In this document: in pieces, positions 35,538 through 64,000 of the stretch
Layout: every line of letters starts with the position of its first letter
Position numbering within the stretch: the stretch's first letter is position 1
Origin: Candidatus Spongiisociaceae bacterium
Lineage (GTDB): Bacteria; Actinomycetota; Acidimicrobiia; Spongiisociales; Spongiisociaceae
Direction of reading: 5' to 3'
NCBI GenBank assembly: GCA_965262915.1
Contig: OZ253564.1
Location: forward strand, 1,216,001 to 1,280,000
DNA: 64,000 nucleotides
The notes under the pieces: generated by a model
What the model saw: the letters and a program-made list of their open reading frames with translations, nothing else
Told to the model about the DNA's origin: nothing
Database searches by the model: none
Position numbers and translations under genes: made by a program

Positions 35538-36152
35538 GGCCACAGGGTACGCCGGCATTGGGACACCCGAATCGAGATCCAGAACGAAAAGGGGGAGAGG
35601 AGGCACGAAGGGAAACCCCCGAACGCCCAAGAACCAAGCGACCAAGCGACCAAGGAAACCCAAGGCTGCTTGCCAGGTGCCCCCAAGGGGCTATGCACAT
35701 TGCGGGATCTGTACACGGAGCCCTACACCTGGACGCCGCTCAACCCGAACGAAATCGCCACCCGCCTAGAGCTCCACACGGCTGACTCCCGTTACCCGTA
35801 AACCGACTCGTCCACGCCAGCGCAGCCCCTAGGCTTATTGCACATATTGGGCGGATACCTGCAATACCCGCCCACCCCGAAACCTCCTGACCAGGCATAA
35901 CGCGCAACGCCTGGACGCGTGAACCCTGCGGGATACCTGCAATGCCTCACCGAACCCGGCCTTCATAGGGGTGCGGGAGCTGTGCCGGCAAGAGGAGTGG
36001 ACAGGGCCGGGCGGCGGCGGTTAAGGTTTCGGGTACCAACACACCCATGGGAGCCCCCAACCTCTGCAGGTTCGGGGTTTTCCCATTCGTGGGGTTGTAG
36101 AAGCCGGGTATTACCCGGGAGTGTCACACCGGTGGGCGATACTCGGGGGGGT

Positions 36153-42300: not shown

Positions 42301-44235
42301 GCCGAACTCGCCGCCGACGCCGAAGCCGACGAAGCCGCACGGGCGTGGGAAGACGCCCTGTTCGACCACATCGAAAACGGCGGCGAAATCGCAGACCTGA
42401 TCCCCGCCCACACCGACCCCCACCACTGGATCCCCGACGACGACGCCGGATACGACAGCCCCCCACCGCCCGACCTCGACGACGACGGCCCCGACACGGT
42501 GACGGCCACACCGGACCAGTACCCGCCCGCCCTGGACCCGGCGCAAGTCGAAGCGGTGATCGAGCGGGTGATCGACCACTGGGGAGCCGACCACTTCGAG
42601 CCTTACCTGACCCTCGCCGACGGCTGGGCGAACACACCACCGCCCGACCCCCGCAACGACCCCGGCCCCCTCGTCGCCCTCGCCGGCCTCTACCAACAAG
42701 CCCGCCACGCCGGAGACGACCCGCTGGCCAACCGGGCCGGAGCGCTCATGGCCGCAGTAGCCGACCCCACCCTGCGCGACACCCTCACCCCCCACACCAG
42801 CCACCGGCTCGCAGACGCCGACCGTCGCTGGGCCGCAGCCGTCCGCTCCCACCTCCGCGCTTGGCGAGCCGAAAGGTGGGCGCCGGTCCTCGACGCTCTC
42901 GACCAAGCCCGCAGCCAGCTCCGCGCCAGCATCCCCCAAAGCGGAGCCGTCACCGCCCCCGCAGCCGCCGGCCACGACCGCACGCACTGGCACCAGGCCG
43001 TAGCCGCCTGGATCGACGACGGAGCCGCCGCCCCACGGCTCGCCGCTGTCTGGCACACCACCAACCGGCGCACCGCCCAGACCCTCGCCGGCCTCCGCCC
43101 CCCACCCGTTTCCCGCGGAAACGGAGACACAGAAGCCCCCTGGCGGAACGTGCCCACCCCCGACGGGCCGGCACCCACTCGCCTACCCGCCGGGCTGCCC
43201 CCCATCCAACCGTCCTCCCAGCCCGCTCCCGCCCACCGCCCCGACGACGGCCACGACCACCTCCGCCGGGTGCTGGGGCGCAGCGCCGACTACTACCACC
43301 AACAGCTCCTCACCGTCCCCGCAGCCGAACCCGCCCGCCGCTACCTCACCGAGCGGGGAATCGAACCCGCCGATTGGGCCAAATGGCAGCTCGGCTGGGC
43401 CCCCGACCAATGGCGTGGACTGTGCAACCGGCTCGGAGACGACCAAGCAGCCGTCGACGCCGGTGTGGCCAACACCCGACGGGGCCGCACCTACGACGTC
43501 CTCCGAGGCCGGGTTGTCTTCCCCATCCGCGACACAGCCGGAGACGTGATCGCCCTCGCCGGGCGAACACTCCCAGGAACCGACGCCGGACAGCCCAAGT
43601 ACCTCAACACCCGCACCACCGCCCTCTACCACAAAACCGACACCCTCTACGGCATCCACGAAGCCGCCGACAGCATCCGCAGCACCGCAACAGCCGGAAT
43701 CGTCGAGGGATACACCGACGCCATCGCCGCCCACCGGGCCGGGCTCACCAACGTCGTCGCCACCGGCGGAACCGCCTTCACCCAAAGCCACCTGCAACGC
43801 ATCATCGACGCCGGCGCCCACCACCTGATCGCCGGGTTCGACGGCGACGCCCCCGGCCAAACCTCCCAACAGAAAGTCACCGACCAAGCCCACCAGGCTG
43901 GGATCCCCACCACGTCTGTGACGTTCCCCACCGGAACAGACCCAGCCAGCCTCGGACCCGACGCGCTGCTCGACCACTGGCAGGCAGGCCTCCCCCAACC
44001 GTGGACGCATATCCAACAGCACCTCGGCGGCGGAGACGTACACACCCGAGCACGAGGACACCGACACATCGCCGCCGCCTACCACAACACCGACCCCACA
44101 CTCGCCAACCTCGCCGCCCACCAAGCCCTCACCCACACCTACGGAGCCACCCCCCACACCCTCACCGCCTGGCACCAGCCCCTCACCACCACCCCACAGC
44201 GCAGCCGCCGCTCCGGCCCCGGCATCGGACTCTAG
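39397..44235 (+). CDS. mobF: MobF (TrwC-type) relaxase - RecD-like helicase - DnaG primase core fusion
   Basis: N-terminal YY, D...APPKSVS, HWTSR..DPHVHAH; GPAGAGKT, DEAG, GYATT, YVGMTRGR; GRVVFPI, PKYLN, VEGYTD, FDGD. Confidence 0.9.
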   Translation: MSVSIYKVGVEHVAYYMGCKGHGGHSAGAAGGGRRPAGASPVGGAEGIPAGGSPAGGSAAVVGAGGGGGAPVGGVPLVGYYTGRDGELAGRWAAGGSMSVAVGAPVTPQQLTASLSAVDPESGERLGRRYTPGGTYVDRLGVTRRRRKFSAYDMVYAPPKSVSAAWALADPATRKQVEAAWDRSVGAVVGFVQTEAVASRSGTNGVRREEVPAGATIARFDHWTSRAADPHVHAHLLVHNRVQCSDGKWRTLDGRLLYHNAAAASAVGGAVLRAELSRRLGWSWDRVGDHWHAELAGSPRRLIAQWSTRRRQIDRAAQAKIRRFETDQQREPTPAERAELWARAQRSTRPSKQDDPDPHTRWHREAEALGVDPAQVTASYQTARRREPDGYDRAELVLSRGGQAAPTVVADAVVAQLEQLGQASRGLSRPDILRTLWATLNAGAALDGQDIDVEAELGRLADELWERATSRLVERDGRWYSTGLASAEVAAVSWLASDAQPAAAAAAEVDTAGLGGDQAAAVDTILAATTRGVVVLGPAGAGKTEMLSRVAAAVGADRVLAVAPTAEAAANLGAALGVVGETAARAALSDDQVPRGGWVIVDEAGQLDTRTLAALAGRAAAADARMILVGDTAQQGSVGAGGVFAALADRPDLVPGAVLSELWRFCDRDEARATVGLRSGNVDALAYHTERGRVHDSTEAELPAVAAGWWAARRDQDTIITAPTRRLVADINSAIAAHRHRAGETGPAVRGEGDATIRVGDTVTTRRNNRRIVASDGGWIRNGDRWEVTGTTPDGQITARRLDRSATVTLPNRYTTEHLQLGYATTQTRVQSLTVDAALCAVTHASRRDQLYVGMTRGRGENHLLVVTDQPQHDEDTPPDHLPPDHIIRTVMSRGGSHPLSVPAGSFTVTPQVAAAHLHKISDTPHRAPLPDLTNVDTRRILTHGITAQTGGVEAEALIGGAIGAWLDAELAADAEADEAARAWEDALFDHIENGGEIADLIPAHTDPHHWIPDDDAGYDSPPPPDLDDDGPDTVTATPDQYPPALDPAQVEAVIERVIDHWGADHFEPYLTLADGWANTPPPDPRNDPGPLVALAGLYQQARHAGDDPLANRAGALMAAVADPTLRDTLTPHTSHRLADADRRWAAAVRSHLRAWRAERWAPVLDALDQARSQLRASIPQSGAVTAPAAAGHDRTHWHQAVAAWIDDGAAAPRLAAVWHTTNRRTAQTLAGLRPPPVSRGNGDTEAPWRNVPTPDGPAPTRLPAGLPPIQPSSQPAPAHRPDDGHDHLRRVLGRSADYYHQQLLTVPAAEPARRYLTERGIEPADWAKWQLGWAPDQWRGLCNRLGDDQAAVDAGVANTRRGRTYDVLRGRVVFPIRDTAGDVIALAGRTLPGTDAGQPKYLNTRTTALYHKTDTLYGIHEAADSIRSTATAGIVEGYTDAIAAHRAGLTNVVATGGTAFTQSHLQRIIDAGAHHLIAGFDGDAPGQTSQQKVTDQAHQAGIPTTSVTFPTGTDPASLGPDALLDHWQAGLPQPWTHIQQHLGGGDVHTRARGHRHIAAAYHNTDPTLANLAAHQALTHTYGATPHTLTAWHQPLTTTPQRSRRSGPGIGL

Positions 44236-48900: not shown

Positions 48901-49090
48901 CCGGGGGTCAAGGCTTCGGTGCTGCTGAACCCGGTCTCTTTCAGCCGACAAGCGCCGCGGTTGCGAGCCGGTCCCCAACCCAGCCGCCGAGGTCGATCTG
49001 CGCCGTCAGTTCCGAGACCGCAGAGCGATGCTGCCCGCGTTCACCGACCCTGCACAAGCTAAGTCGAGGATAACTCCGGAAGGACATACC

Positions 49091-51037
49091 ATGGACAAGT
49101 TGAAGATGCACTCACCCTATCTGACCGAGTGGAGCATAGACAAGATCGCCGAGTTGTTCCCTACGGTCATCACCGAGACGCTCGACGACACCGGCCACCC
49201 GATCCGGGCCATCGACTTTGACCTGCTTCGTCAGGAACTGTGCAACCACATCGTAGAGGGGCCACAGGAACGCTATCAGCTTGACTGGCCCGGCAAGCGC
49301 AAGGCTCTTCTCGCAGCGAACGCCCCGATCGCGAAGACGCTACGTCCGGTCCGCGAGAAATCCGTCGACTTCGATATCACGCAGAACCTATTCATCGAGG
49401 GCGACAATCTCGACGCCCTCAAGCTCTTGCAAGAGTCGTATCTCAGCAAGGTCAAGCTCATCTACATCGATCCGCCGTACAATACGGGCAAGGACCTCAT
49501 ATACGACGATAGATTTGCCGGATCAACCCACGAGTATCTGGCAAAGTCTCGGCAAGTTGACGATGCTGGGAGGCGTCTGGTAGCCAACACGGATTCCAAC
49601 GGACGCTTCCACTCAGACTGGCTGAGCATGATCTATCCACGACTGAAGCTCGCACGGAATCTCCTATCCGAGGACGGAGTGCTCCTCGTGTCGATCAACG
49701 ATGTTGAAGCAGGCAATCTTAAGAAGCTTGCCGCGGAAGTGTTTGGAGAAGCGAACTTTATCGCTCAGTTCGTGTGGCTCAACGATGGCAACGTCGACCA
49801 GCAAAGCAAAGTAAAAGGCGTACACGAATATATACTCGCCTTTGCTCGGACCATCGAGAACTTCCAGCGCCCAATCGTGATCGATCCGAACATCAACGAA
49901 GCCAGCAAACTGTACCGGAAGACGATCGAAAACTCAATCACAAAGAATGGACCGGCCAATCCTCCATCAGTAGTGACGTTGCCCGTCGGGTTCCCGGCCG
50001 GATTCTCTAACGGCCGCGTCCGGCCACGAGTTGACAAGTTCCCACATATACTTGATGAGATCTTGGTCAGAGACGGGTTGCTCGTACAGCCAGCGAGATT
50101 GCGAAGTGGCTGGAGTTCACGACAACTACTTGATCAGTTCATTAATTGCGGATGTACGCCGATTCAGGATACCGCGGGCAGAGAGACATGGTTCGAACTT
50201 CGTGATAGCGGCGCGATCTATGGACTGAAGAAGCGGGCCGACGATCAGGGTCATGTGCTGTCAGTATTGCGTAATATGGGAACGACGAAGCAGAACAGCT
50301 CGATGCTCCGAGCGTGGGGCCTGAAGTTCTCATACCCAAAGCCGGTATTCCTAATCGAATACCTAATCAGGGTCTTCACCCGGCCAAGAGACGGTGAGAT
50401 CGTAATGGACTACTTCTCCGGCTCTGCAACGACAGCTCATGCGGTAATGGCCGCGAACGCTCACGATGGCGGAGACCGGAGGCACATACAGGTTCAGTTT
50501 CCTGAACTCATAGAGAGAAGCGAAGACCACCGCGATGAAACCATCGCGGACCTTGCTAGGCGCCGGATGGTTGCAGCTGGAGAGTCAATTCAGGCAGAGT
50601 GTACCCGAAACACTGGTGAGTCCACACTGGATACAGGATTCCGATTCCTGAGGATTGACACGACCAACATGACGGACGTGCTGCGCACGCCTGACTCGAT
50701 CGACCAGAGCGAGTTGGCCCTTTATATGGAGAGCGTGAAGCGGGGCCGAACCGGTGAGGACTTGCTGTTCCAAGTACTCCTCGACTGGGGCCTGGAGCTC
50801 AGCATGTCCATCGCGGTCGAGCAGATAGACACGCACGAGGTGTTCGTCGTCGAGGATAGGGTACTCGTCGCCTGCTTCGACAACGAGGTGAGTCCAGCCT
50901 TGGTGCGCGAGATCGCAGAGCGGGAACCACAGCGTGCAGTGTTCCGTGACTCTGGATTCGTGTCGGACGCCGACCGTATCAACGCCAAGCAGGTATTCGC
51001 CGAGGTGTCCCCCTCTACCGACGTCAAGGTGATCTGA
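49091..51037 (+). CDS. mod: Type III R-M methyltransferase subunit
   Basis: ERYQLDWPGK, NLFIEGDNL, IYIDPPY, HSDWLSMIYPRL, YPKP, DYFSGSATT. Confidence 0.95.
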   Translation: MDKLKMHSPYLTEWSIDKIAELFPTVITETLDDTGHPIRAIDFDLLRQELCNHIVEGPQERYQLDWPGKRKALLAANAPIAKTLRPVREKSVDFDITQNLFIEGDNLDALKLLQESYLSKVKLIYIDPPYNTGKDLIYDDRFAGSTHEYLAKSRQVDDAGRRLVANTDSNGRFHSDWLSMIYPRLKLARNLLSEDGVLLVSINDVEAGNLKKLAAEVFGEANFIAQFVWLNDGNVDQQSKVKGVHEYILAFARTIENFQRPIVIDPNINEASKLYRKTIENSITKNGPANPPSVVTLPVGFPAGFSNGRVRPRVDKFPHILDEILVRDGLLVQPARLRSGWSSRQLLDQFINCGCTPIQDTAGRETWFELRDSGAIYGLKKRADDQGHVLSVLRNMGTTKQNSSMLRAWGLKFSYPKPVFLIEYLIRVFTRPRDGEIVMDYFSGSATTAHAVMAANAHDGGDRRHIQVQFPELIERSEDHRDETIADLARRRMVAAGESIQAECTRNTGESTLDTGFRFLRIDTTNMTDVLRTPDSIDQSELALYMESVKRGRTGEDLLFQVLLDWGLELSMSIAVEQIDTHEVFVVEDRVLVACFDNEVSPALVREIAEREPQRAVFRDSGFVSDADRINAKQVFAEVSPSTDVKVI

Positions 51038-51041
51038 GGCA

Positions 51042-54000
51042 GTGGAACTCCAGTTCAAGATCCAGCAGTACCAGACCGACGCCGTCGAAGCGGTGGTCGA
51101 GTGTTTCGCCGGGCAGCCCAAGCATGATGGCATTTCGTACCGTGTCGATCCTGGCCACCAACCGAACGCAGATCAGCAGAAATTCGACGTGTCAGCGACT
51201 CACGATTCGGGTTTGCGTAACGCCGAGATTGCGCTGAGCACGGTGCAGCTGCTGGAGAACATCCACTCTGTGCAACACAGCCACAACCTCCCCCGATCCT
51301 GCAAGCTGGCCAACAGCAAGGCGGCACCGGACGCACCGAACTTAGACATCGAGATGGAGACAGGCACGGGCAAGACCTACGTCTACATCAAGACGATCAT
51401 GGAACTGCACCAGCGTTACGGGTGGAGCAAGTTTATCGTGGTCGTACCAAGCGTGGCGATCCGCGAGGGTGTGAAGAAGTCGTTCGATATCACCGCCGAC
51501 CACTTCCAGCAGTACTACAGCACCAAACCACGGTCGTTTATCTACAACTCGTCGCGACTTCACGAACTGGAGCGGTTCAGTTCGCACGGCGGGGTGCAGG
51601 TGATGATCATCAACATCCAGGCGTTCAACGCGACCGGCAAGGCCAACCGTCGAATCTACGAAGAACTCGACGACTTCCAGTCACGGCGCCCGATCGATGT
51701 AATCAGAGCCAATCGTCCGGTCCTGATCATCGATGAGCCTCAGAAGATCGGCGCAGCCAAGTCACTCAAGGCACTCTCGCGCTTCGAAGCACTCATAGTT
51801 CTGCGCTATTCGGCGACCCACAAGGTTGACCATGACAAGGTTCACCGGCTCGACGCTCTCGATGCGTACAACCAAAAGCTCGTGAAGAAGATAGCGGTGC
51901 GCGGCATCACCGTCAAAGGCCTAGCTGGAACCACCGCTTACCTGTACCTGAACGCCATCGAGATCTCCAAGCGACACAAACCACGGGCGCGTCTCGAGTT
52001 GGAGGTGCAGACGAAGGCGGGACCGATCAAGCGGCAGGTCAAGCGACTCGACGTCGGGGCGAACCTGCACGACGTCTCGGGCGGCATCGAGGCGTACAGG
52101 GGATTGTTCATCACCGAGATCGACGCCAACCGTGACGTGATTGAGCTGAGCAACGGTGACGTCGTGACCGTCGGGCAACTTACGGATCGCGACGTCACCG
52201 AGGAAACCAAGCGTCGCATCCAGATCCGGGAGGTGATACGCGCCCACCTTGACAAGGAGCGCGAACTGTTCGCGCAGGGCATCAAGGTGCTGTCTCTGTT
52301 CTTCATTGATGAGGTGGCCAAGTACCGCGACTACGACCGGGAAGACACGCTTGGCGATTACGCCCGCACTTTCGAGGAAGAGTACGCCGCCGCTGTAGAC
52401 GAGGTATTGGACGAGCCCACGCTCGACGAGACGACGAGGGTGTATCGGGAGTACCTGCGGCGCGACAAGGTGCGGACCGTGCACCAGGGTTACTTCTCGA
52501 TCGACAGGAGATCGAAGCGGCTGGTCAACCCGACGGTCGTCAAGAGGGGTGAGGAAAAGGGCCACTCAAAGGACGTCGACGCCTACGACCTGATTCTGAA
52601 GGACAAGGAGCGCCTGCTGTCGCTCGCCGAACCAGTGCGGTTCATCTTCTCCCACTCGGCGCTTCGCGAAGGATGGGACAACCCCAACGTGTTCGCTATA
52701 GGGATGCTCAAGAAGAGCGACAACATCGTGTCGCGCCGCCAGGAGGTGGGCCGCGGCCTACGGCTCGCCGTCAACCAGCACGGCGAGCGAATGGACAGCC
52801 CCATCACCGTCCACGACATCAACGAACTGACCGTGGTGACTGACGAGTCCTACACCGACTTCGTCGCGGGACTGCAGAAGGAAATCGACGAGTCGCTCTC
52901 CGCACGCCCCCGAAAGGCCACGCCGGAGTTCTTCGCCGACAAGGTGCTCCGAGTGCCAGACGGATCGGGTGAGCAGGTTGTCATCACGCTTGACCAGGCC
53001 AGGCATCTCCAGCACTGGCTCACAATGAACGGGTTCATCGACTACGAGCAGCATCTCACCGACAGGTGGCTAGACCGTGCGAACATCGACATGCCGGAGC
53101 TGCCTGACGGACTGGATCAGTTCTACTCCCAAGTCGCAGAACTGATAGATTCGCTCTACGTCGGCTTTCCACAGCCCACCGACGGACGCAGACCGAAGCG
53201 CATCCCACTCAACGAAGCAAATTTCGCGAAGAGGGAGTTTCAGGAGCTTTGGGGTCGTATCAACCACAAGGCCGTATACCAGGTCGAGTTCGATTCCACG
53301 GAGCTAATCGACAAGTGCATCAGTGCTGTCGACGCCCAATTGCACGTAACCGCGACGCAGTACGTCGTGAAGTCCGGAGAGCAGCGGGATGTGCTGGAGG
53401 CTTACGACCTAGCCGAGGGAGCGGGCTTCGACATCACCAGAACGGTCACACACATCGAACCCGCCACGGCCGCCTCGCAGGTCAAATACGACCTTCTCGG
53501 CAGGATCGCCGAGAAGACGCAACTCACCCGCCGCACAGTCAGCGCGGTCCTTCGTGGTATCCGGCGGGACACGTTCGCGAAATATCGGCAGAACCCCGAG
53601 CAGTTCATCACCGAAGCGGCACGCCTCATCAACGAACAAAAGGCCACCGTCATCGTGGAGCACTTGACCTACGACACCCTTACCGAGCGGCACACTACGG
53701 CGATATTCACCGAGAACCAGACCAGACAGGACTTCGCCAAGGCCGGGCCCAAGCTCACAAAACACATCTACGACTACGTGGTCACCGACTCGAAGGTCGA
53801 GCGCGACTTCGTAACCGAGATGGACACTAGCAACGAGGTCGTCGTGTACGCGAAGCTCCCGCGTGGATTCTTCATCCCAACCCCGGTCGGCGACTACCAC
53901 CCTGACTGGGCCATCACCTTCCAGAAGGGTACGGTCAAGCACGTCTACTTCGTCGCCGAAACCAAAGGTTCTCTCTCCTCGATGCAACTCAGGGGAGCCG

Positions 54001-54125
54001 AGTTGGCAAAGATCGAATGTGCCCGCAAGTTCTTCAAATCGCTGAACACGAAGAACAACTATGCCGTGAAGTACGACATCGTGACCAACTACTCAAGGCT
54101 CATGAGCCTTGTTGGACAGCCCTAA
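51042..54125 (+). CDS. res: Type III R-M endonuclease/helicase subunit
   Basis: METGTGKT, DEPQ, YSATH, LREGWDNP, QEVGRGLR, PDW...AETKG. Confidence 0.95.
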   Translation: MELQFKIQQYQTDAVEAVVECFAGQPKHDGISYRVDPGHQPNADQQKFDVSATHDSGLRNAEIALSTVQLLENIHSVQHSHNLPRSCKLANSKAAPDAPNLDIEMETGTGKTYVYIKTIMELHQRYGWSKFIVVVPSVAIREGVKKSFDITADHFQQYYSTKPRSFIYNSSRLHELERFSSHGGVQVMIINIQAFNATGKANRRIYEELDDFQSRRPIDVIRANRPVLIIDEPQKIGAAKSLKALSRFEALIVLRYSATHKVDHDKVHRLDALDAYNQKLVKKIAVRGITVKGLAGTTAYLYLNAIEISKRHKPRARLELEVQTKAGPIKRQVKRLDVGANLHDVSGGIEAYRGLFITEIDANRDVIELSNGDVVTVGQLTDRDVTEETKRRIQIREVIRAHLDKERELFAQGIKVLSLFFIDEVAKYRDYDREDTLGDYARTFEEEYAAAVDEVLDEPTLDETTRVYREYLRRDKVRTVHQGYFSIDRRSKRLVNPTVVKRGEEKGHSKDVDAYDLILKDKERLLSLAEPVRFIFSHSALREGWDNPNVFAIGMLKKSDNIVSRRQEVGRGLRLAVNQHGERMDSPITVHDINELTVVTDESYTDFVAGLQKEIDESLSARPRKATPEFFADKVLRVPDGSGEQVVITLDQARHLQHWLTMNGFIDYEQHLTDRWLDRANIDMPELPDGLDQFYSQVAELIDSLYVGFPQPTDGRRPKRIPLNEANFAKREFQELWGRINHKAVYQVEFDSTELIDKCISAVDAQLHVTATQYVVKSGEQRDVLEAYDLAEGAGFDITRTVTHIEPATAASQVKYDLLGRIAEKTQLTRRTVSAVLRGIRRDTFAKYRQNPEQFITEAARLINEQKATVIVEHLTYDTLTERHTTAIFTENQTRQDFAKAGPKLTKHIYDYVVTDSKVERDFVTEMDTSNEVVVYAKLPRGFFIPTPVGDYHPDWAITFQKGTVKHVYFVAETKGSLSSMQLRGAELAKIECARKFFKSLNTKNNYAVKYDIVTNYSRLMSLVGQP

Positions 54126-54156: not shown

Positions 54157-54400
54157 GGGGTTACCGTAGAAAATGGACAAAGGACAACGGTTTCGTTGGG
54201 CGACTGATGCGGCAGGTGGTGGTTTGGGGGTGGGGTTGTGATTGCTGTCTGGCGTTGGTGGGGTGACTAGAAGGAAGGTGGGGGAGTGTTAGGGGTTCTG
54301 AGGGGTCGGAGTTGTCCTTGGTGTTGGGGTGGTGAAGTCGTTTTGCCGTAGAAGTTGATGTGTTGGTGGATGGCGGGTGATAGGCGGGCGAGTCGGCGGC
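54157..54400 (-). mobile_element. Tn3-family right-end remnant
   Basis: LARLSPAIHQHINFYG...LRPLR C-terminus and a GGGGTTACCGTAGAAAA terminal-IR-like end. Confidence 0.7.
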
Positions 54401-54479
54401 AGGGAACGACGTGCAGAAGTTCAGCGCCTAGGCGATGTTCATGACCCGACACAGGGAGCTCCGGTCGCTGAGACCACAC

Positions 54480-55055
54480 CTATGGCCGAGTCCATGCACA
54501 GATACGCACCCAAACCGTTGTGTTTTGTCCATTTGCTACGGTCACCCCATCTACCTCTCCCAGCCAGGACTCGCCAAACGTGCTCGGCGCCCGGGCCCCG
54601 TTATGCCCCACTCCGATCCCATAACCCAACGTCAACTCGGCATCCACCCGAAGCGCCCCATACGTCCCGCGTGACCGTTGGTGGACTTGGTGGATGAGAT
54701 CGCCTAGCCAGGCATGGCGGATCGCCCGGGCCGAAGGTGAGGCCTGGTCCTCCAGGCGTAGAACCCCGACTCTGACACCCCAAGCACCCGGCAAGCCACC
54801 CTGGTGGGTAGCCTCTCGCTGTTTATCGTCTGGATCGCTTCGAACCGTCTTTTGGGGACACCACCTGGGCTTTCAGCAACTTGTTGGCTCGCTTGGTCAC
54901 GGCCAGCTCCGTCTCCAGCTCAGCGATCCGACGACGCGCTGGCCGCAGTTCTGCCCCCTCCGCAGAAGTGAGGCGACGGTCAACAGCGTCTTGGCGTCGC
55001 CAGTTGTAGATCATCTGATCCGACACACCAAGATCAGCCGACAGAGACGCCACCG
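54480..55055 (-). mobile_element. IS3-family remnant
   Basis: orfA-like ADLGVSDQMIYNWRRQ...IAELETEL; orfB-like SRGTYGALRV.AEL. Confidence 0.7.
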
Positions 55056-55178
55056 AAGTAGTGTCCGTTCTTGTGGTGTACTGGGGGGTGAGGCTCCTTT
55101 GATTTAGGTGACCACCGCGTCAGCCTCACAGAGGTATTCAGCTCGAACCGTGAGGAGGAACGCGGTGGTCAACACAAG

Positions 55179-55500
55179 GATGGACGAGTTGGTGTGGTTA
55201 CCCACACCAACTCGAGGCAGAGGGCAATGATTTGCTGCGGGAGATGATCCGTAGCTTCGCGCAGGGGTTGATGTGATCTGTGGAACTCCGTAGGGTGAGC
55301 GGAGCCCGGATCGGGTGAATCGTCGTAACGGGTATCGGACCCGCCGCTGGGACACCCGGGTGGGTTCGATCGAGTTGTGGATTCCCCAAGCCGCGGCAGG
55401 GTTCGTACTTCCCGGAATGGCTGTTGGATACCCGTACCCGTTCGGAGCGGGCGTTCGTGCAGGTCGTGACCGAAGCCGATGTGAGGATGAAGATGAACGG
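55179..55500 (+). mobile_element. IS256-family transposase remnant
   Basis: NRRNGYRTRRWDTRVGSIELWIP; ERAFVQVVTEA. Confidence 0.75.
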
Positions 55501-55628
55501 ACCAAGCCTTTGGCCTAGACCTTCGAATGGCATGGCACCGGGAAATCATACTCTCGAATCGTTCCCAGATGCTCGACGCCGTTCCACGCCCCGATCACAA
55601 CGTCGTGGCCTTGTGAGCGGCCACAGCA

Positions 55629-55844
55629 TCACGACGGGGCACGGCATGAGCGCCCGGTGCGACGCGCCCACACCTCAATATCGCGCCTCAACCACAACCG
55701 GCACTGTCCCCGCTCGATGGCTGGAGGTGGGAAGTTGCCATACCGCGAGCGGTAGACGCTGACCACACTCCTAGAGGCGAGACCAAGGAGAACGGCCACG
55801 TCACCCGCGTCCACAAGATCATTGGGGTCTATCAGCTCGGGCAC
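55629..55844 (-). CDS. Small AlpA/excisionase-like DNA-binding protein
   Basis: DLVDAGDVAVLLGL...FPPP...RLWLRRDIEVW. Confidence 0.6.
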   Translation of the reverse strand: MPELIDPNDLVDAGDVAVLLGLASRSVVSVYRSRYGNFPPPAIERGQCRLWLRRDIEVWARRTGRSCRAPS

Positions 55845-56066
55845 GTGCGCCGACTGTAGTTGACGCGAGCCTCCGACCCCGGCAGAGTTGGAGAGCTCCA
55901 ACATTTCGGCTAACTTGGGGAAGTCAGGGTTGAGTTGGGCGAGCATGAACGGTCTGCTAGGTACTGCGATCAGCCCTTGGCGAGCAGGACTGTACGCTGA
56001 GGTCCCGGCTCATCGTTCGAATGAGGATTGAGGGCCGGTTGCGAGGGTGGGGTAAATGTGGCGTCT

Positions 56067-57593
56067 ATGAGTAAGAATTGGTCCCGGGAGGTGGGAGATC
56101 TCGTCCTGCCCGAGAATTTCGTTCTAGCTACGCGTGATACGGGATACCGTTCCCCTGCCTATGCCCTTGCCGAACTCGTAGACAACGCGATTCAGGCTGG
56201 CGCGAGTCAGGTCATAATTTGTATCAATTCTCTCGAGAGCACCGAGCATCCGATCGAAATCGAGGTGGTCGACAATGGGCACGGTATTAGGGAGGACGAA
56301 CTCCAGTCGGCGCTCGCGTTCGGAGGGACATCTAGGTTCGACGACCGTTCTTCGCTCGGCCGATACGGTATGGGACTCCCAAATGGGGCCCTGGCTCTGG
56401 CGCGACGGGTGGCAGTGTGTTCTTGGGATGGCGAGGCCGCGTACAGCACCCAACTCGATGTGGATGCGATCGCTGAGCGTCGTTGGTCCGGGATCCCAAA
56501 GCCTGTACGGAGTAACCCCCCGACCTCGGCGGTGGGCTTCCCGAGTGGCACAGCTGTCCGCTTGACATCTTGTGATCGGCTTTCGTATCGGCGAGTTGGA
56601 AATTTCGTATCTCGTATCCGGGTGGACTTCGCGCGTATCTACCGCCGCTTCCTGGTACAGGACCTAACTCTCACGGTTAACGGGATACCCGTAAGGGCAT
56701 TCGATCCCCTTTTCCTCAATACAGGTGATGGAGTAGGTAGTGGACGCCAGTTCGGCAGCATCTTGAAATATGACCTGATCGGTGATAACGGCCAAGCAGG
56801 GCGTGTTACCGTTCTGTTCTCGGAACTTCCGGTGGAGAGGTGGTCTCCGCTGACAGCAAAGGAGAAGCGATTGATCGGGATCAATGCCAGTCCGTCCGTG
56901 TCGGTCATGAGAGCAGGGCGTGAGATTGATCGAGGCTGGTTCTTCATGGGAGGAAAGCGACGTGAGAACTACGACGACTGGTGGCGTTGCGAAGTCTCGT
57001 TCGATCCCGAGTTGGACGAACTCTTCGGTATCACGCACGCGAAGCAGCAGATCTCCCCGAGGAGCGACCTTCAGGCCGTGTTGACACCCGATCTCGAAGC
57101 TGTGGGAAGGGCGCTCAACTCTAGGGTGCGCAAGCGATTTGACAATATGAAGTATGCTGCCCCACTCAACGAGGCAGAGAAGAAGGCTCTTCGAGCCCAC
57201 CATAGGCTTCCTCCACTGCCGATATCCGATGGGCGTAGGTGGGCTAGATCGACAGATATAGCAGCTCACTACTTCGTAGGAACGACGCTGTCCGTGGCCC
57301 CATATCGGATTACCGTAGGCTCCCTTGAGTCGACCTCTGCCTATGAACTCTTCAGCTGTGACGGACAGCTAAACCTCATATTGAACGATCATCATCCCTT
57401 CTTTCGAGACCTCTACGAGCCGCTTGTCGGGCTCGGAACCGAACGAGGACCTAAACTAGCTTCTTACCTAGCCTTGACCATACTTGCTGCGGCGCGCGTT
57501 GAGGCCGAGATTATCGATCCGGCGGATCAGGCTCAGTTCAGTAGGTTGCGCCAGCGATGGAGTGATATATTGGCCAGTTTTTTCAACGCATGA
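56067..57593 (+). CDS. GHKL (HATPase_c_3 / MORC-like) ATPase
   Basis: RDTGY, ALAELVDNA, DNGHG, LGRYGMGL, GT Bergerat-fold motifs; C-terminal LILNDHHPFF. Confidence 0.85.
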   Translation: MSKNWSREVGDLVLPENFVLATRDTGYRSPAYALAELVDNAIQAGASQVIICINSLESTEHPIEIEVVDNGHGIREDELQSALAFGGTSRFDDRSSLGRYGMGLPNGALALARRVAVCSWDGEAAYSTQLDVDAIAERRWSGIPKPVRSNPPTSAVGFPSGTAVRLTSCDRLSYRRVGNFVSRIRVDFARIYRRFLVQDLTLTVNGIPVRAFDPLFLNTGDGVGSGRQFGSILKYDLIGDNGQAGRVTVLFSELPVERWSPLTAKEKRLIGINASPSVSVMRAGREIDRGWFFMGGKRRENYDDWWRCEVSFDPELDELFGITHAKQQISPRSDLQAVLTPDLEAVGRALNSRVRKRFDNMKYAAPLNEAEKKALRAHHRLPPLPISDGRRWARSTDIAAHYFVGTTLSVAPYRITVGSLESTSAYELFSCDGQLNLILNDHHPFFRDLYEPLVGLGTERGPKLASYLALTILAAARVEAEIIDPADQAQFSRLRQRWSDILASFFNA

Positions 57594-59563
57594 CCCACGA
57601 ACTGCCGAATGGGGAATGGGTTACTCTGGAAGGACCACGGGGAGCGACAGATTCGTGTCGTCAACGGTTTGTCATTCTGGCACGCAAACTTGAATTGAGT
57701 AGTAGATCTGAGAACCTACTAAGAACGATAACCGCACTCGAAGAGTCCGACGATCTTGTACTGAAGAGTTCTCTTTCCGTACTCGTTGACTTAGTTGCCC
57801 AAGGATGGAGACTCCGTGTGGATCACAGCACCATTCTGGTACATCCTCCGATTATTAACCCGGATGTAATGCAGGAAAAGGAGCGGGTTCGCCAACTTGA
57901 ACTTTGGAAACGAGCAGAACAACTTCGGAAGCCATCGGTACGTTCCTTTATCAAGAAGATGGAGACTCCTAAATATCACGACGGTCGCTTCACGTCAATC
58001 TTCGACCTTCTTCGGGATGGGCAAGAGCTTGTTGTATCACTCAAGGCGGCGGCCTCCGCTAGTTGTCGTGAAACAGCACTTCGCGACTGTATAGATCCGT
58101 ATATCCAAATCGTTGAGGCGTCTAGCCGATGTGCATATACGGGCCTACGCCTACTCGACATATGGCGCTACTTTCGACACACTTGGATAACTCAATACAG
58201 TACAACGCCGGGTCGGACGATGATACTACTTGTCCGTGATGCGGCGGCAGAAAACCATCCTGTGATCGGTATAGCTGCGCTAGCGTCGCCGATCATCCAG
58301 ATCTCGGAGCGAGATACATGGATCGGATGGCAACCGGATTCCTATCTTGATCTTATAGAGCGAGATCCAACGGCAACCCATGCTACGTGGCTGGTATCTA
58401 GGCTTAGAGCTAGCCTCGCAGAACTGTATCTGGACGATCTCATTGCAGACAGACTCTATTGGCCAGCGCTTTGGCTCGAACCGGATCCGGATAAGATCGA
58501 TCGGTTACGAGCAGAATCCAAGAGATGTCGTACGAACCACGCTCGCTTCTCACGTCCTCAAGACCATAAACGAGCCGACTCGGATCCCGACAAATGGCTG
58601 GCTCGTGCCGAGACCGATCTCTTCAGGAGCAAGCGGTGTGCGGTTCTGGCAGATCTCCTATTTGCTCGATCAGCCCTGCTCCCATATATCACCCCGGTAC
58701 CATCCAGAGCTGGCCTACAAGCAGCAATGACCGACCGAAACGCTCGCCGTGCGATTCTGGGTGTCATTCGCCGTGCGAAGGCAGCCTCCGTAGGTTCTGT
58801 GATGGCTGACCTCTCGGTCTGTGGCGCGATCGCACCCTACAACGCCCTACTCGGTGGGAAGCTTGTCAGCATGCTGAGTGTCAGCCCGTCGGTTATCCGC
58901 GCCTACAAGGCCAAGTACCAGTCCTCCCCGAGCGAGATTGCCTCTTCGATGGCTGGTCGCCCCATCTACCGTAGCGTGGACCTCGTCTACATTGGGACGA
59001 CTTCGCTCTTCGGGTCAGGGTCCAGCCAATACAATCGCATACGACTCCCAGAGGGTGTGCTTCGGGGGGCGACTGGCTCTGTAGAATTCAAGAGGCTTGG
59101 TCGGTCAAGGTCGTACGGTACCTCCCATCTGTCGAGTCGCTCCATGAAGTATCTCGTCAACTTGGCCGAACTGCGTGCTGGCGGCACCCGCATCAACTCA
59201 ATCTTCGGTGAGGGCGCCAACCCGAAACTGAGGAAGATGCGTGAAGGTATCGACCAACTGGGGTGGCCGTCGGACAAGTTGCTCCGTCATGGCCGGACCC
59301 GACTCGTGTACGGAGTACCGCTTGTTCACAACCTACTTCCGTACCTTCTTGACGTAGAGCGCAAGCCGGCGTATCTATTCGACGTAGACAACTTGGAGGA
59401 TACCGACGAGATCGCTCGCTATTGGACGACTCGGTGGCTCGCCCGCCGGAGTCGGCGGCCCGAGGTTCTTGATGAAGTAGCTCGGCATCGACTCTCCCAC
59501 CCCATCAGCCACGGAGCGAAAGTCGATCTACCCAGTGCCTCTCCGGAGAGGGGCCAGAGCTAA
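57590..59563 (+). CDS. druA: Druantia DruA-like protein (DUF4338)
   Basis: WRYFRHTW, PGR.M..LVRD...HPVIGI..LASP, VCGAIAPYN.LLGGKLV, TTSLFG.GSSQYNR. Confidence 0.8.
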   Translation: MTHELPNGEWVTLEGPRGATDSCRQRFVILARKLELSSRSENLLRTITALEESDDLVLKSSLSVLVDLVAQGWRLRVDHSTILVHPPIINPDVMQEKERVRQLELWKRAEQLRKPSVRSFIKKMETPKYHDGRFTSIFDLLRDGQELVVSLKAAASASCRETALRDCIDPYIQIVEASSRCAYTGLRLLDIWRYFRHTWITQYSTTPGRTMILLVRDAAAENHPVIGIAALASPIIQISERDTWIGWQPDSYLDLIERDPTATHATWLVSRLRASLAELYLDDLIADRLYWPALWLEPDPDKIDRLRAESKRCRTNHARFSRPQDHKRADSDPDKWLARAETDLFRSKRCAVLADLLFARSALLPYITPVPSRAGLQAAMTDRNARRAILGVIRRAKAASVGSVMADLSVCGAIAPYNALLGGKLVSMLSVSPSVIRAYKAKYQSSPSEIASSMAGRPIYRSVDLVYIGTTSLFGSGSSQYNRIRLPEGVLRGATGSVEFKRLGRSRSYGTSHLSSRSMKYLVNLAELRAGGTRINSIFGEGANPKLRKMREGIDQLGWPSDKLLRHGRTRLVYGVPLVHNLLPYLLDVERKPAYLFDVDNLEDTDEIARYWTTRWLARRSRRPEVLDEVARHRLSHPISHGAKVDLPSASPERGQS

Positions 59564-59700
59564 CTGGCGCCGCGATGGGCATCCACCGGACCATGGATCT
59601 ACGTCTACGGGACGAAGGTCACACGGCTCGACCATAATAGGGGCGTGGAGGTCTCGAACGGCAGCGCAACCTCAATGACCGGGGCACGGGGGTAGCGACC

Positions 59701-62574
59701 ATGAGCGGGTTGCTCGCAGACTGGCACCGTCAGCTCCACGAGAACTTTGGATCGCTACGTGATGAGCGTGAGCGTCGCACGCCGGGACGCCCAGTCTTCG
59801 CCCTTGAGCACGGGCTCGACCGTCACTCGGAACTGCCCGAATTGATCCAAGTTGTGCGCGGCTCCATAGCTTCTGGCAGGATGCTCGCAACATCCCACTG
59901 GCTTCCGATCATTGTGTACGCGGCTGAGATAGGATACGACTATCAAGGCGACGCATACTGGCCTAGATTTGAATCGAAGACTCCATGTTGGGAACAGCTA
60001 GGTAATACAGGTCGCGACTACATCCGGGCGACGTTCAAGGATTTTGCTGAGTCGTACGGGGGCGCGAGACCATCCGGGCGATGGGCTGAGTGGTTCACGA
60101 TAATCGCATGGCCGATAACACATGCTGTACTCCCCGTCTACCTCCAGCGACAACTAGCGTTACTACTACACAACTATCGGAATGTACTGACGGCCGAGCT
60201 GCTGCATGACCACGACGAACTCGGAAAGCGTTTGGCTAGCCATAGCCACAGTTCCTCAGAGCGGTTCAGGAACTTCGCGGAGAACTCATCGCTGCTAGGA
60301 CTCGTAGCAGCCTCGTTACTATCCGACGACGAAGAGGATTCGGGCCTGCTCAGGTCTTCGACCCTACATAGGATCGTCAAAGATCTGCACAGCGAACGCC
60401 AAGCGGGTGAATGGCTCCTAAGCGCGCGACGGGTAGCCGACACAGTTAGACGCCGTGGATTCCTTTCGAACAGAAACGCGCCGAGGCCACTACCCAGGTC
60501 GAGCAGTTCGGAGCAGGTGCAATCGCCTCGTCTCGACCTTGAATTGGAGGTCCGACGGAGGGGGCCGGAATGGACGGTCTACGTCACCGTACCCAGCCAT
60601 CAGTCCCTAGCCCGGCGGTTCCCCGACGTTGGACGTGAACTTCGGCGGCTTCGCTATCGAGTAGATGGTGTAACTACACGAAGGGTACAACCGCGAGGCG
60701 CCCTCATGTACGAACGGGGACCGTTCCCGCTATCGCGTTATCCCATACCGGGTACCTCCGTCATAATCCCGGAAGGGGCTACCTTCATAGTGAAGCAGCT
60801 CTTAATTGATAGCTGTAAGCTCCCTGGAGGCCCTTGGCTTTTCTACCTTCGCGAGTCCGGCCACGGAACAGAGATTCGTACCAGGCGGGTCCGGCCCGGA
60901 CACAACTATGTGGTCCTCAGCGATCCGATGGCTCAGATCGCGTCCCGATGGTGTGTGCCTGTTCCGCTCTCAACAGAAGGCGTACAAGCTCACCACCTGA
61001 ATATCCCTGAACACGTCGACTCTTCGATCATTAGAGAATTGCGAGAGCTGGGTATCGGTGTAGTCTCTGATGCCCACGTATGGCCCGCAGGTCTTGTTCC
61101 TGCACGTTGGGACGGAGCAGGACGAGCCGCTTGGCGGTTGGGTGATAGCCCGATCCTCGGGATCCAATGCACTCGAGCAGCATCCACTTGCCGCGTCACC
61201 GTCGGGGAATCTACGATCGAACTATCTTGGCCTAACGACAGCGATATGCTCTTCCTTCGGCTGGTGGATCTTGATATCGGTATCCATCTGGTGGAAGTGA
61301 TGATTCTTTCTGATCCCTCGGACGAGTTGATAGCTGAAGGACAACTTGAAGTAAGCATAATAGAGCCAGCAGACAGCATGGTGGACTCTGGGGCTCGCCA
61401 AGGGCTTAGGATTATGAGCTATCCGGCCCAACCGACGTTCTCTGAGTTGTGGACTGGCGACGCTGTAGTTGTCGCTGATGGTCCTCTAGGTGAGAGGGTC
61501 AAGTTCCAGGTCTCTCTTATGAATAGCCGGGGGAGTCCGGAGGTGGCGCTCGCTCCTTTCTCGTCCGAGTTACCGGTAGATGACAAACGATGGCGAGCTC
61601 TATGGCGCACTGCCCAGGGAAACTGGACTGCTGACCGGGGCGATAACAAGTTGCACGCGTCTTCCGCCCAGGCTGAAGAACTGGTGATTTCAGCATCCAA
61701 CCCGATACTCGGGTCGTTCCAGATAAGAGCTGAGCGGCCATTCTCTGCCCTCCGTTGGTATGGAGGAATTGACCGTGAGGGCCCGTTTGCACGGTTGGTT
61801 GATCAAACCGATCGTAGAGATATCGTAGTTGACTATTATGACCTACGTTGCCCGGACGAGAGAGGCGAACCGAAACTCGATGAGAAACGTCAGGTACGGA
61901 GCGTTTACGGCGGCTTAGTAGTAGCGAGTATTCCTGGCCTAGAGACGGGGATAGTCCTACCAACCCATATATCGGGCAATTTACTAGACCTGCGGCGATC
62001 TAATACTCGTCCCTCCATAAATATCGATGACAGGTGTTCAGAGTCTGTGTGTCGCCTGATACAAATAGCGAGGTTATGGACCCATACTGGGCTAGCCCTG
62101 GATAACAGAGCAGCAATTGTGCAGTCCAAAGTAAATGACGCACTTGTGGCAGCATTAGGTAGAATGATCTGCGGAGGTCGGTGGTGGCGTATTATAGAAA
62201 ATTCTGTAATGAAGGGTACTCGTCCGACGTATCACGACTTGCTGATCGCAGCTGGAGATACACCCGAGGAATGTGAAGTAGCAGGTCGACTGCAACAGAT
62301 CGCTACAACAGTATCAGCGGACCCAATCGAACGGTCCATACGGTTCTTCAATACACTAGGGCTTAATCCAGAGTTCTCTAATACAGTTACGAATGTAGTT
62401 CGGCTAGCAACGGTACCCGGGGCGCTCATACTCAACGAAAGAGAGGTGGGGCAATCGATAGAGTTAGTTCTGACTGCACCATCGATCTATCGATTGGCGA
62501 GACTATTCGTATTGACAATTGCCAACTACGAGAACGATGAACCGTTTGCGACCTTGAGGAACTGGCCGTGGTAG
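59701..62574 (+). CDS. Large Druantia-associated protein of unknown function (DruF-like by size and position)
   Basis: 957-aa clean ORF (VFALEHGL, YAAEIGY, IIAWPITHAVLP) in operon upstream of a DruE-like helicase. Confidence 0.65.
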   Translation: MSGLLADWHRQLHENFGSLRDERERRTPGRPVFALEHGLDRHSELPELIQVVRGSIASGRMLATSHWLPIIVYAAEIGYDYQGDAYWPRFESKTPCWEQLGNTGRDYIRATFKDFAESYGGARPSGRWAEWFTIIAWPITHAVLPVYLQRQLALLLHNYRNVLTAELLHDHDELGKRLASHSHSSSERFRNFAENSSLLGLVAASLLSDDEEDSGLLRSSTLHRIVKDLHSERQAGEWLLSARRVADTVRRRGFLSNRNAPRPLPRSSSSEQVQSPRLDLELEVRRRGPEWTVYVTVPSHQSLARRFPDVGRELRRLRYRVDGVTTRRVQPRGALMYERGPFPLSRYPIPGTSVIIPEGATFIVKQLLIDSCKLPGGPWLFYLRESGHGTEIRTRRVRPGHNYVVLSDPMAQIASRWCVPVPLSTEGVQAHHLNIPEHVDSSIIRELRELGIGVVSDAHVWPAGLVPARWDGAGRAAWRLGDSPILGIQCTRAASTCRVTVGESTIELSWPNDSDMLFLRLVDLDIGIHLVEVMILSDPSDELIAEGQLEVSIIEPADSMVDSGARQGLRIMSYPAQPTFSELWTGDAVVVADGPLGERVKFQVSLMNSRGSPEVALAPFSSELPVDDKRWRALWRTAQGNWTADRGDNKLHASSAQAEELVISASNPILGSFQIRAERPFSALRWYGGIDREGPFARLVDQTDRRDIVVDYYDLRCPDERGEPKLDEKRQVRSVYGGLVVASIPGLETGIVLPTHISGNLLDLRRSNTRPSINIDDRCSESVCRLIQIARLWTHTGLALDNRAAIVQSKVNDALVAALGRMICGGRWWRIIENSVMKGTRPTYHDLLIAAGDTPEECEVAGRLQQIATTVSADPIERSIRFFNTLGLNPEFSNTVTNVVRLATVPGALILNEREVGQSIELVLTAPSIYRLARLFVLTIANYENDEPFATLRNWPW

Positions 62575-63695
62575 CAGTCCAGCTGACACCGGACGAGGTT
62601 GTACAATCGTCTGTTAAATCCCTTGGATTTGATAAAGAACTCGCTGATTTTGAGACTCCTGAGGTGGTCGTAGAAGCGATAAGAAGAGCATCCTCATTCA
62701 TGTGTCCTACTTCTCCGCGCCGTCTTGTCCAGGCAGTTGTGGAGGTGATGCGGGGACTAGTATCGTCAGAACTATCTGACGATGACGAGGCATCGGTCAG
62801 CGCTCTTCTCGAGGCCGTGACCGCTTACGGAGACCTTGTGGAGGTGCCTCTCGAAGATGAGTCAGGGATCTCACGCCGTGTAGTGTTCCTCGGACCCCCG
62901 TCGTATGTGACAGTTTCGTCAACGATCGTACTCTTGGTCGGCTTACGAGGTGAGGGCCTTGCGCTGTTGGACGAATTGCTCAGCAAGCGTGTCGTGCACC
63001 AGGTCCACGTACGGCGTATGGAACTCGAACAAGGTGAAAACGCAGCGGCACTGTTCAGATCGAGCGATCTCCGGGAGCTCAGTATTGACCAGTGGCTTGA
63101 GCATCCTCGATTCTGTACTCCTCGTGATGTGTACGAAGAGTACAGCAAAAGCCTCAATGCTAGTGGTCCATCCGGGACCATCGAAGGATGTAGAATTCTC
63201 GATCCAGGAAAGTCTCCGACTTACTACCGAGGCCGCTGGCGCTCACCGACGCGTAAGGACTTCGGTCGTTTCGTCGCCCGGCGACCGGTTGAGTTCGGAG
63301 CGGACCTGTGGTGCTTCGCTGAGCTAAGCGAAGGTAACGTCGAGCGGCTCATCGACTTACCCGTGCACCACCTCCTCAACCGAGGCTGCGACGAGGCTTG
63401 GCGTCTGCAAGCGGCGGTAGACTACCTCAACGGAAACCCACAGACAGTCCGAGTTGGGTCCGCCTATTGCTCAAGTGACGTACTTCTTCACCTACGATCA
63501 CCGGTCCCTTCCTGGGCCCAACGCTACCTTGAAACCCTTGGTAGGCCTCTCCCTCGACAACGAGGTAGTCTCATCTCATTCAACATTGCCAAATGTTTGC
63601 TCCAAGACGCCCTGCGGTTTCTAGGCGAATCGATGTGGATTGACCACGAGTACGATGATGGCAGATATGAGACACCAGAGCCTGACGATCGGTGA
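62568..63695 (+). CDS. Druantia-associated protein of unknown function (DruG-like by position)
   Basis: 375 aa; overlaps both neighbours; YYRGRW, DEAWRLQ. Confidence 0.6.
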   Translation: MVAVQLTPDEVVQSSVKSLGFDKELADFETPEVVVEAIRRASSFMCPTSPRRLVQAVVEVMRGLVSSELSDDDEASVSALLEAVTAYGDLVEVPLEDESGISRRVVFLGPPSYVTVSSTIVLLVGLRGEGLALLDELLSKRVVHQVHVRRMELEQGENAAALFRSSDLRELSIDQWLEHPRFCTPRDVYEEYSKSLNASGPSGTIEGCRILDPGKSPTYYRGRWRSPTRKDFGRFVARRPVEFGADLWCFAELSEGNVERLIDLPVHHLLNRGCDEAWRLQAAVDYLNGNPQTVRVGSAYCSSDVLLHLRSPVPSWAQRYLETLGRPLPRQRGSLISFNIAKCLLQDALRFLGESMWIDHEYDDGRYETPEPDDR

Positions 63696-64000
63696 AACGA
63701 CCGAGGAGATCCGTACCGCCCTCAAGGACTACATCGAAGCCGCCTATCATATAAGTCATCCGACTGTTGTTACACAACGTAGTCGATTACTTGACAAGCC
63801 CGGGGTGATCAGCCAGGAGCCCTTTCTCGAGAGCACACCTCGCTACCAGCTGGGTGATAGATTCGCCTCGTTGCGGATTCCGAGAACAGCAAAAAAGCTT
63901 CTTACACAGATGGCAGAGGCAACGCTGGTCCACGACCCCCCGTATCGCCATCAGGCCGAGGCGATTGAGGGAGTAATCACAGATGGGCGGAGCCTGGTGG
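63667..64000 (+). CDS. druE: DruE-like DEAD/DEAH helicase, N-terminus only
   Basis: LKDYIEAAYHISHP...PFLESTPRY...Q motif PYRHQAEA; runs off the window just before the expected Walker A. Confidence 0.7.
   Translation, partial: MRHQSLTIGETTEEIRTALKDYIEAAYHISHPTVVTQRSRLLDKPGVISQEPFLESTPRYQLGDRFASLRIPRTAKKLLTQMAEATLVHDPPYRHQAEAIEGVITDGRSLV

Follow-up and report, generated by a model that had tools for sequence, protein, structure and literature searches.

What kind of defence system is encoded by the five co-oriented genes at the end of the 64,000-nucleotide stretch of Candidatus Spongiisociaceae bacterium DNA analysed here (GenBank:GCA_965262915.1, contig OZ253564.1, positions 1,216,001 to 1,280,000; hereafter the window)? 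In the first-pass annotation, the locus was read as a hybrid Druantia system, in which a module of a MORC ATPase and DruA replaces the methylase ahead of a type II-like F-G-E core. We found that the locus is most suitably classed as a type I Druantia variant that lacks DruB and DruC, and in the architecture of this variant our confidence is high. All five genes lie on the plus strand. The gene for a GHKL ATPase (56067-57593; 508 amino acids (aa) from ATG; PF13589 HATPase_c_3, E 6e-20) shares an ATGA overlap of stop and start codons with a gene for a long-form DruA (57590-59563; 657 aa; PF14236 DruA; PADLOC DruA1, PDLC00001, E 3e-207 over residues 29-651). A gap of 137 bp (59564-59700) separates this module from the core, which consists of a gene for a 957-aa protein, here called X957 (59701-62574), the gene for DruD of type I (62568-63695; 375 aa from the first GTG; PADLOC DruD1, E 7e-105 over residues 3-361), and the 5′ end of the gene for DruE, a YprA-family superfamily 2 (SF2) helicase, which starts at an ATG at 63676 and leaves the window at 64000 after 108 codons (PADLOC DruE1, E 1e-32). 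X957 and DruD overlap by 7 bp, and DruD and DruE by 20 bp. As observed at first inspection, the five open reading frames (ORFs) were intact, coupled and spaced in this way, and lower in GC content (0.548-0.562 vs 0.62 for the window). Because the same genes were linked in dozens of other genomes, the five-gene set is not due to chance. The 137-bp gap is likely a boundary between two transcription units; the two blocks were rearranged at this joint in relatives, and a promoter and terminator scan of the gap gave no signal above chance.

Type I Druantia is defined as DruABCDE, type II as DruMFGE and type III as DruH-DruE (PMC13316683, PMC8565338). Screening of the ORFs with PADLOC hidden Markov models (HMMs), a check proposed at the outset, named DruA1, DruD1 and DruE1, the first being also supported by PF14236/DUF4338. 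The 108 aa of the helicase in the window scored 111 bits with DruE1 vs 46-47 bits with DruE2 and DruE4, and a full-length relative scored 1925 bits with DruE1 vs 632 bits with DruE2; relatives of about 1860 aa contained the DEAD, Helicase_C and MZB/DUF1998 domains, so that the best match to DruE1 comes from the window and the helicase and DUF1998/MZB domains from full-length relatives. No model of DruM, DruF or DruG was matched. Since the matches are to DruD1 and DruE1, the core is a type I derivative and not a hybrid with a replaced methylase, and the F-G-E assignment had to be given up: the presumed second member of that core, of 375 aa, was identified as DruD1, and the helicase sides with DruE1. 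Comparison of the DruD profile with PDB sequences gave no match. With canonical type I the locus shares DruA, DruD, a DruE1-class helicase and the gene order A..D-E, and a long-DruA model of 675 positions in the PADLOC type I set fits the window DruA end to end; because PADLOC already holds such a model, long-DruA proteins must have been collected before. It differs from canonical type I in that a single protein with immunoglobulin (Ig)-like repeats, X957, takes the place of DruB and DruC, in that DruA is of 657 vs about 410 aa and is coupled to a GHKL ATPase, and, in the variant as seen in other genomes, in that the A block is usually downstream and convergent, a PD-(D/E)xK gene often follows DruE, and the DruE clade is separate from the canonical P. 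putida DruE.

X957 had 591 homologs among 8000 scored candidates and no match in the PADLOC, Pfam or NCBIfam copies searched. Thus, of the two genes first listed as unknowns, the 957-aa gene was without a match in these collections, whereas the 375-aa gene could be named. PADLOC Dru models, including those for DruB and DruC, matched neither X957 nor any of 50 aligned relatives (51 members), hhalign comparison with P. putida DruB gave E 0.32, and the predicted X957 model was without a long coiled coil. A candidate for DruC has been described as a coiled-coil, inactivated McrB-like CnuB homolog (Bell et al., 10.1101/2025.09.15.676423), a gene which we would equate with DruC. A fusion of DruB and DruC was also considered for X957 and rejected, as it resembles neither protein of the canonical five-gene locus on the P. 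putida plasmid. The predicted model (mean predicted local distance difference test score, pLDDT, 86.2) has a helical domain at each end, with several Ig-like beta-sandwiches in between; its fold matches were Ig/FN3 domains (Z 9.6), and Foldseek returned generic Ig-rich chains only. DruH of type III has a helical, tandem Ig-like, helical layout by cryo-electron microscopy (10.64898/2026.05.13.724313), and the X957 model agrees with this description. Profile-profile comparison of X957 with 28 DruH sequences, whole or by domain, gave E values of 0.14-0.49, similar to reversed controls, and no DruH entry appeared among the X957 fold-search matches. In the ESM Atlas, 10-21% of the members of clusters resembling X957 carried YjiT_N, at a recognition score that the tool itself rates weak; YjiT is DruH, and yjiT of strain K-12 matches DruH3. 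The likeness of the modelled X957 to DruH is therefore an architectural analogy. Type III and the variant have in common a large helical/Ig/helical partner without the look of an enzyme ahead of DruE; the variant differs in having a DruE of the type I class without a phospholipase D-type (PLD) nuclease, in its additional DruD, DruA and GHKL proteins, and in the lack of a significant X957-DruH profile match. It was also noticed that yjiT of E. coli K-12 is followed by the pseudogene yjiV (locus L087, 6415-10856), forming a decayed type III Druantia beside mcrBC, and that a locus of a Mycobacterium sp. has a second X957 paralog, located upstream of its core (L019, 5024-8161).

The X957 alignment was used in a two-pattern scan of GTDB genomes, which yielded 333 relatives. 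The counts given here come from the best 80 of the 333 loci, viewed with flanks of at most 10 kb; they lean to close relatives, the closest being mostly actinobacterial metagenome-assembled genomes, and contain near-duplicates (L027/L029 and L043/L045). DruD followed X957 in 76 of the 77 loci with room for it, and DruE in 72 of 75. DruA was in view in 65 of the 80 loci, which belonged to several phyla; it was long in 53, represented by its C-terminus only in 4 and short (about 390 aa) in 8. For the remaining 15 loci, the downstream view was short in 8 and the locus broken in 1, and no DruA was found within about 9.5-10 kb downstream in 6. This survey confirmed for other genomes the linkage between the DruA module and the three core genes. 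The module does not as a rule head the operon, as had been proposed from the window: long DruA was downstream and convergent in 48 of the 53 loci, upstream and co-oriented as in the window in 3, upstream and divergent in 1, and downstream and co-oriented in 1. Wherever the start of long DruA could be seen, a GHKL gene lay immediately 5′ to it in all but one case (31 of 32 loci), so the two genes do form a module. With flanks of at most 10 kb, most convergent GHKL genes could be seen only by their 3′ ends. The gene was recognised by HMM in 18 of 19 loci with at least 130 bp upstream (in 17 with a profile independent of these loci, and in L009 with a locus-derived profile) and by eye, from the C-terminal tail of the family, in 13 of 13 shorter views. 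Within view, no GHKL gene was found in any of the 8 short-DruA loci, nor in a Nitrosococcus plasmid locus with the order short DruA-X955-DruD-DruE. Short DruA and GHKL plus long DruA never occurred together in the 65 loci. A PDDEXK_1 nuclease gene, with E-D-DxK and four-cysteine motifs that look active and a weak partial match to DruK, followed DruE in 42 of the 71 loci with room, and such an accessory nuclease is thus not obligatory. Bell et al. (10.1101/2025.09.15.676423) predict that the nuclease domain within type I DruE is inactivated, and a separate nuclease therefore makes sense. A DUF4365 gene and a gene for a 397-aa protein without an assignment occupied the nuclease place in L011 (19619-21396) and in about 20 other loci, mostly of streptomycetes.

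The GHKL protein comprises a GHKL domain, an S5-like domain and a helical C-terminal part. Alignment of 74 relatives revealed invariant residues E36, D39, N40, D69, G71, G98, G101, G103, G161 and K326, and the four nucleotide-binding GHKL motifs of the MORC family were all present. Among PDB sequences its nearest solved relatives were human MORC2-4 (MORC2, E 1e-14), ahead of MutL (E 1e-8). The strict MORC S5 motif GhXhhpXXRhl (PMC2292703) was found in none of the 74 family members, and a form with E allowed at the tenth position was found in 58. The original label MORC is thus borne out by the nearest solved relative and not by the S5 motif, and on these sequence features MORC-related or paraMORC-like is the fair label. 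The protein is not an MzaB, as it scored 64 bits with NCBIfam NF041932 vs a cut-off of 850, and no Mza partner was present among the five window genes. Prokaryotic MORC-related ATPases have been described mainly from restriction-modification (R-M) neighbourhoods with SF2 helicases, the two occurring together in about 70% of neighbourhoods (Iyer et al., PMC2292703). The present ATPase shares with them the GHKL motifs, the S5-like domain and the helicase and nuclease neighbours, and differs in having a GNAT protein rather than a methylase as partner, in addition to the missing strict motif. A prediction of the complex between DruA and GHKL residues 170-508, an input without the ATPase domain, returned a score of 0.00, that is, no answer. 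More distant GHKL relatives on plasmids lie near genes for DUF4007/PAPS-reductase or cytosine-methylase proteins, and a second, 640-aa GHKL paralog adjoins the GHKL-DruA pair in L020 (7670-9592), L083 (7527-9452) and L085 (7523-9448).

What might DruA do? DUF4338 has already been published as a GNAT domain (PMC10853773). Our model of the long DruA (pLDDT 88.8) showed a GNAT fold, as in the Mom family, split by a helical insert (about residues 248-398) that is missing from short DruA, plus an N-terminal extension. In a fold search of 48,161 chains, all 50 listed matches were of GNAT type, and the first was Mom of phage Mu (8bv8; Z 9.3, root-mean-square deviation 4.0, 172 of 202 residues aligned), tied within 1 Z unit with ordinary acetyltransferases at 8.8; the tRNA-acetylating toxin AtaT scored below it (Z 5.7-6.2). 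Mom as the best fold match of the modelled DruA is new in this analysis, and with the GNAT fold it lends support to the early suggestion that DruA might modify or mark DNA. Mom transfers glycine from tRNA to adenine in SASNY, for which it depends on a helical insertion that presumably contacts DNA (Silva et al., PMC13219725). The DruA model showed, after beta-6, a helical insertion (residues 516-564), with R548, R551, H567 and R571 invariant, which judging from secondary structure is apparently at the place of the Mom insertion. DruA differs from Mom in size (657 vs 241 aa), in its large extra helical domains, in being cellular and in the lack of sequence similarity. No match was obtained with the DruA profile against PDB sequences, no usable match in the ESM Atlas with PF14236 excluded, and none by tblastn against 50,697 phage records. 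The DruA model did match viral proteins in BFVD (A0A3G4ZXG3, E 7e-8; A0A5K0UAJ3, 1.5e-6; A0A6J5SK47, 0.03), all uncharacterised, one being from a tailed phage and the others from giant viruses, and DruA-like folds have been reported in Synechococcus phages (10.1101/2025.08.05.668817); such occurrence of the predicted fold in viruses would be as expected for an enzyme that protects DNA. Independent support for a marking role comes from E. coli type I Druantia, for which a PacBio adenine signal was reported on CAGCTGNC, with no methylase present and no writer gene assigned (10.1101/2024.04.14.589459); this context is compatible with the loose SASNY consensus of Mom. We suggest that calls by single-molecule real-time (SMRT) sequencing may label a larger adduct as N6-methyladenine (m6A).

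Distances between long-DruA proteins tracked those of X957, DruD and DruE (Spearman 0.76-0.80; 0.84-0.87 between core proteins; 30 loci, 0 of 500 permutations), host kinship being ignored in these correlations. Long and short DruA formed two well-separated clades in a quick tree of 25 rows. In a FastTree of 36 hand-picked DruE sequences, the DruE proteins associated with X957 grouped in a single clade (0.96), distinct from canonical type I, and within this clade the long-DruA locus L064 nested among short loci and the short-DruA locus L060 among long loci. Because the two DruA clades are separate yet interleave on the DruE tree, the DruA block is exchangeable: one core takes either of two such blocks, of which the long one includes the ATPase. 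The long block is also portable, with GHKL plus long DruA occurring but without X957 and DruD on three alphaproteobacterial plasmids (Paracoccus, Leisingera and Roseivivax), of which the Paracoccus and Leisingera pairs adjoin a longer DruE1-type helicase. Long DruA occurs in addition without the ATPase gene: in haloarchaea it stands ahead of SspF/G/H-like genes, and in Hymenobacter it forms a fusion with an SspF-like domain, so that a GNAT protein sits where the phosphorothioate writer, the DNA-modifying partner, would be expected in SspFGH-like operons. These cases comprise haloarchaeal plasmid operons headed by long DruA and divergent from a DruE1 operon, and the Hymenobacter fusion (L084, 11701-21530; L086, 11701-21531; L082, 11130-14288). 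An XF1762-family gene is near the operon in L086.

Taking the gene identities, their linkage, the GHKL/long-DruA pairing, the exchange of DruA blocks and the GNAT fold as established, we propose an activity, a substrate, a donor and a contact that would make the variant an R-M-like defence, a proposal whose chances we judge to be even. In it, the long DruA would be a Mom-like GNAT that marks host DNA as self by attaching an acyl or aminoacyl group to one of its bases, most likely adenine, and the GHKL ATPase would be its dedicated partner, a DNA clamp or loader gated by ATP that either licenses the marking or renders it processive. The restriction block would be X957-DruD-DruE, often followed by the PD-(D/E)xK nuclease, and would act on unmarked or forked DNA; by analogy with type III, X957 may bind at ends or forks of DNA and there load the helicase DruE, with a separate nuclease doing the cutting. 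The logic of a YprA-family helicase arm with a DNA-marking enzyme would be shared with DISARM/ARMADA (Bell et al., 10.1101/2025.09.15.676423), from which the variant would differ in having a GNAT rather than a methyltransferase as marker and a conserved gene set without BrxHII/SNF2. A wider proposal is distinctly more tentative, although it seems to us a possibility worth stating: DruA proteins may be cellular Mom-like writers that place an acyl or aminoacyl self mark on bacterial and archaeal chromosomes, forming an R-M class beyond methylation, phosphorothioation and deazaguanine, with GHKL plus long DruA as a portable, ATP-driven writer serving several restriction arms (X957-DruD-DruE and other DruE1 helicases, with long DruA alone for SspFGH-like arms) and with the type I "m6A" being a larger adduct.

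Several observations weigh against a Mom-like writer working with this core. The lead of Mom over ordinary acetyltransferases in the fold search is within a tie, Foldseek with the DruA model returned nothing at E ≤ 0.001, and hhalign comparison of DruA with the single Mu Mom sequence gave E 0.59, with a reversed control at 0.55. The catalytic residues of Mom (R111, S124, D149 and R151) had no obvious counterparts in DruA by eye, and the Mom study itself cautions that substrates are not predictable from structure (PMC13219725). The agreement of CAGCTGNC with SASNY has a chance of about 1 in 8 and comes from a short-DruA E. coli system, not the present variant. The best X957-DruH comparison (E 0.14) was close to its reversed control (E 0.23), and some loci had no gene at the nuclease place, the nuclease being present in only 42 of 71. 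L044, the sole long-DruA exception to the pairing, has an AbiEii gene in the place of GHKL; the Roseivivax pair has no DruE or other helicase in view; and the distance correlations, as stated, ignore host kinship.

The alternative that fares best is that the DruA GNAT acts on protein or tRNA, as an effector or regulator (for example in abortive infection or as a switch of DruE), with the GHKL protein as sensor or restraint and with no DNA self mark. The tie of protein and small-molecule acetyltransferases with Mom, the lack of evident counterparts of the Mom catalytic residues and the precedent of type III Druantia, which discriminates by DNA structure without a mark (10.64898/2026.05.13.724313), all speak for it; yet AtaT scores lower than Mom, the orphan adenine signal of type I Druantia requires a writer, and DruA pairs with SspFGH-like restriction genes, so that we regard it as unlikely. 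Rather less probable still is that GHKL plus long DruA is a self-standing two-gene unit merely travelling beside an independent X957-DruD-DruE system. Such independence would agree with the separate transcription direction in 49 of the 53 long-DruA loci, with the plasmid pairs lacking X957 and DruD, and with the 15 of 80 core loci without DruA, although about half of the last came from curtailed views. Against it, the core had some form of DruA with it in 65 of 80 loci, drawn from several phyla, the two DruA forms excluded each other, two of the three plasmid pairs adjoin a DruE1-type helicase, and DruA and core distances co-vary. It is very unlikely that the ATPase serves the restriction block, scanning or looping DNA on behalf of DruE in the way MutL assists UvrD, with no more than a genetic coupling to DruA: the frequent company of MORC-type ATPases and SF2 helicases would suit such a role, but the same core does without GHKL in every case with a short DruA (the gene is in 0 of 8 GTDB loci and is missing from the plasmid locus L081 too), and on the DruE tree GHKL presence follows DruA length, not core lineage. 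The original type II reading, with DruM replaced by MORC-DruA, is hardly tenable, for although X957 is neither DruB nor DruC and could be a remote DruF/DruH-like protein, and DruA may functionally stand in for a methylase, the DruD1 and DruE1 identities and the absence of any DruF2 or DruG2 match already largely refute it.

Returning to the type I variant, it is a widespread and apparently undescribed version of Druantia. As the first-pass annotation had expected, no description of Druantia paired with a GHKL, HATPase or MORC ATPase was found in the literature searched, for MORC among the best-ranked papers. Bell et al. (10.1101/2025.09.15.676423) called the diversity of types I and II unappreciated, in a main text that does not mention MORC, GHKL, ATPase or DruA; their supplementary neighbourhood tables may list the gene set. 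The X957 gene in 333 GTDB species indicates that the variant is common, and because the copies of PADLOC, Pfam and NCBIfam used here fail to detect X957, variant systems are likely under-called. Of the 33 systems compared in one phage screen, type I Druantia acted the most broadly (10.1101/2024.04.14.589459). The basis of its self/non-self discrimination, with adenine marks and no methylase, becomes directly testable if DruA is a Mom-like GNAT, and cultured strains of Streptomyces, Micromonospora and Microbacterium carry the variant; if true, the host would be using a chemistry known from phage counter-defence.

The five genes end a defence region rich in mobile elements. Directly upstream is an intact type III R-M pair (49028-54125; Mod of 669 aa and Res of 1027 aa by PADLOC), which was considered as part of the Druantia locus and set aside as a separate system, because the conserved neighbour clusters contain no such genes. 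The interval from the R-M genes to the Druantia block (54400-55550) holds fragmented ORFs that by eye resemble insertion-sequence remnants. A 105-aa helix-turn-helix (HTH) gene divergent from the GHKL gene (55629-55946, minus strand), with weak PDC-M06B and mad1 matches, is a possible regulator; it was rejected as a part of the system, since no homolog was found at E<0.01 in the fetched loci. Farther upstream, a gene at 39397-44235 encodes a 1612-aa fusion of TrwC relaxase, AAA_30 helicase and DnaG primase, which together with integrase genes at 23060-24331 and 36578-37033 represents an integrated mobile element bearing the defence genes. The region 30596-35663 contains a gene for an HTH and IrrE/ImmA-type peptidase protein and two ABC-three-component (ABC-3C) genes (CTD10, DUF2326), apparently duplicated or split, and near the start of the window (1864-2346, minus strand) is a MazF/PemK-like toxin gene of the toxin-antitoxin type.

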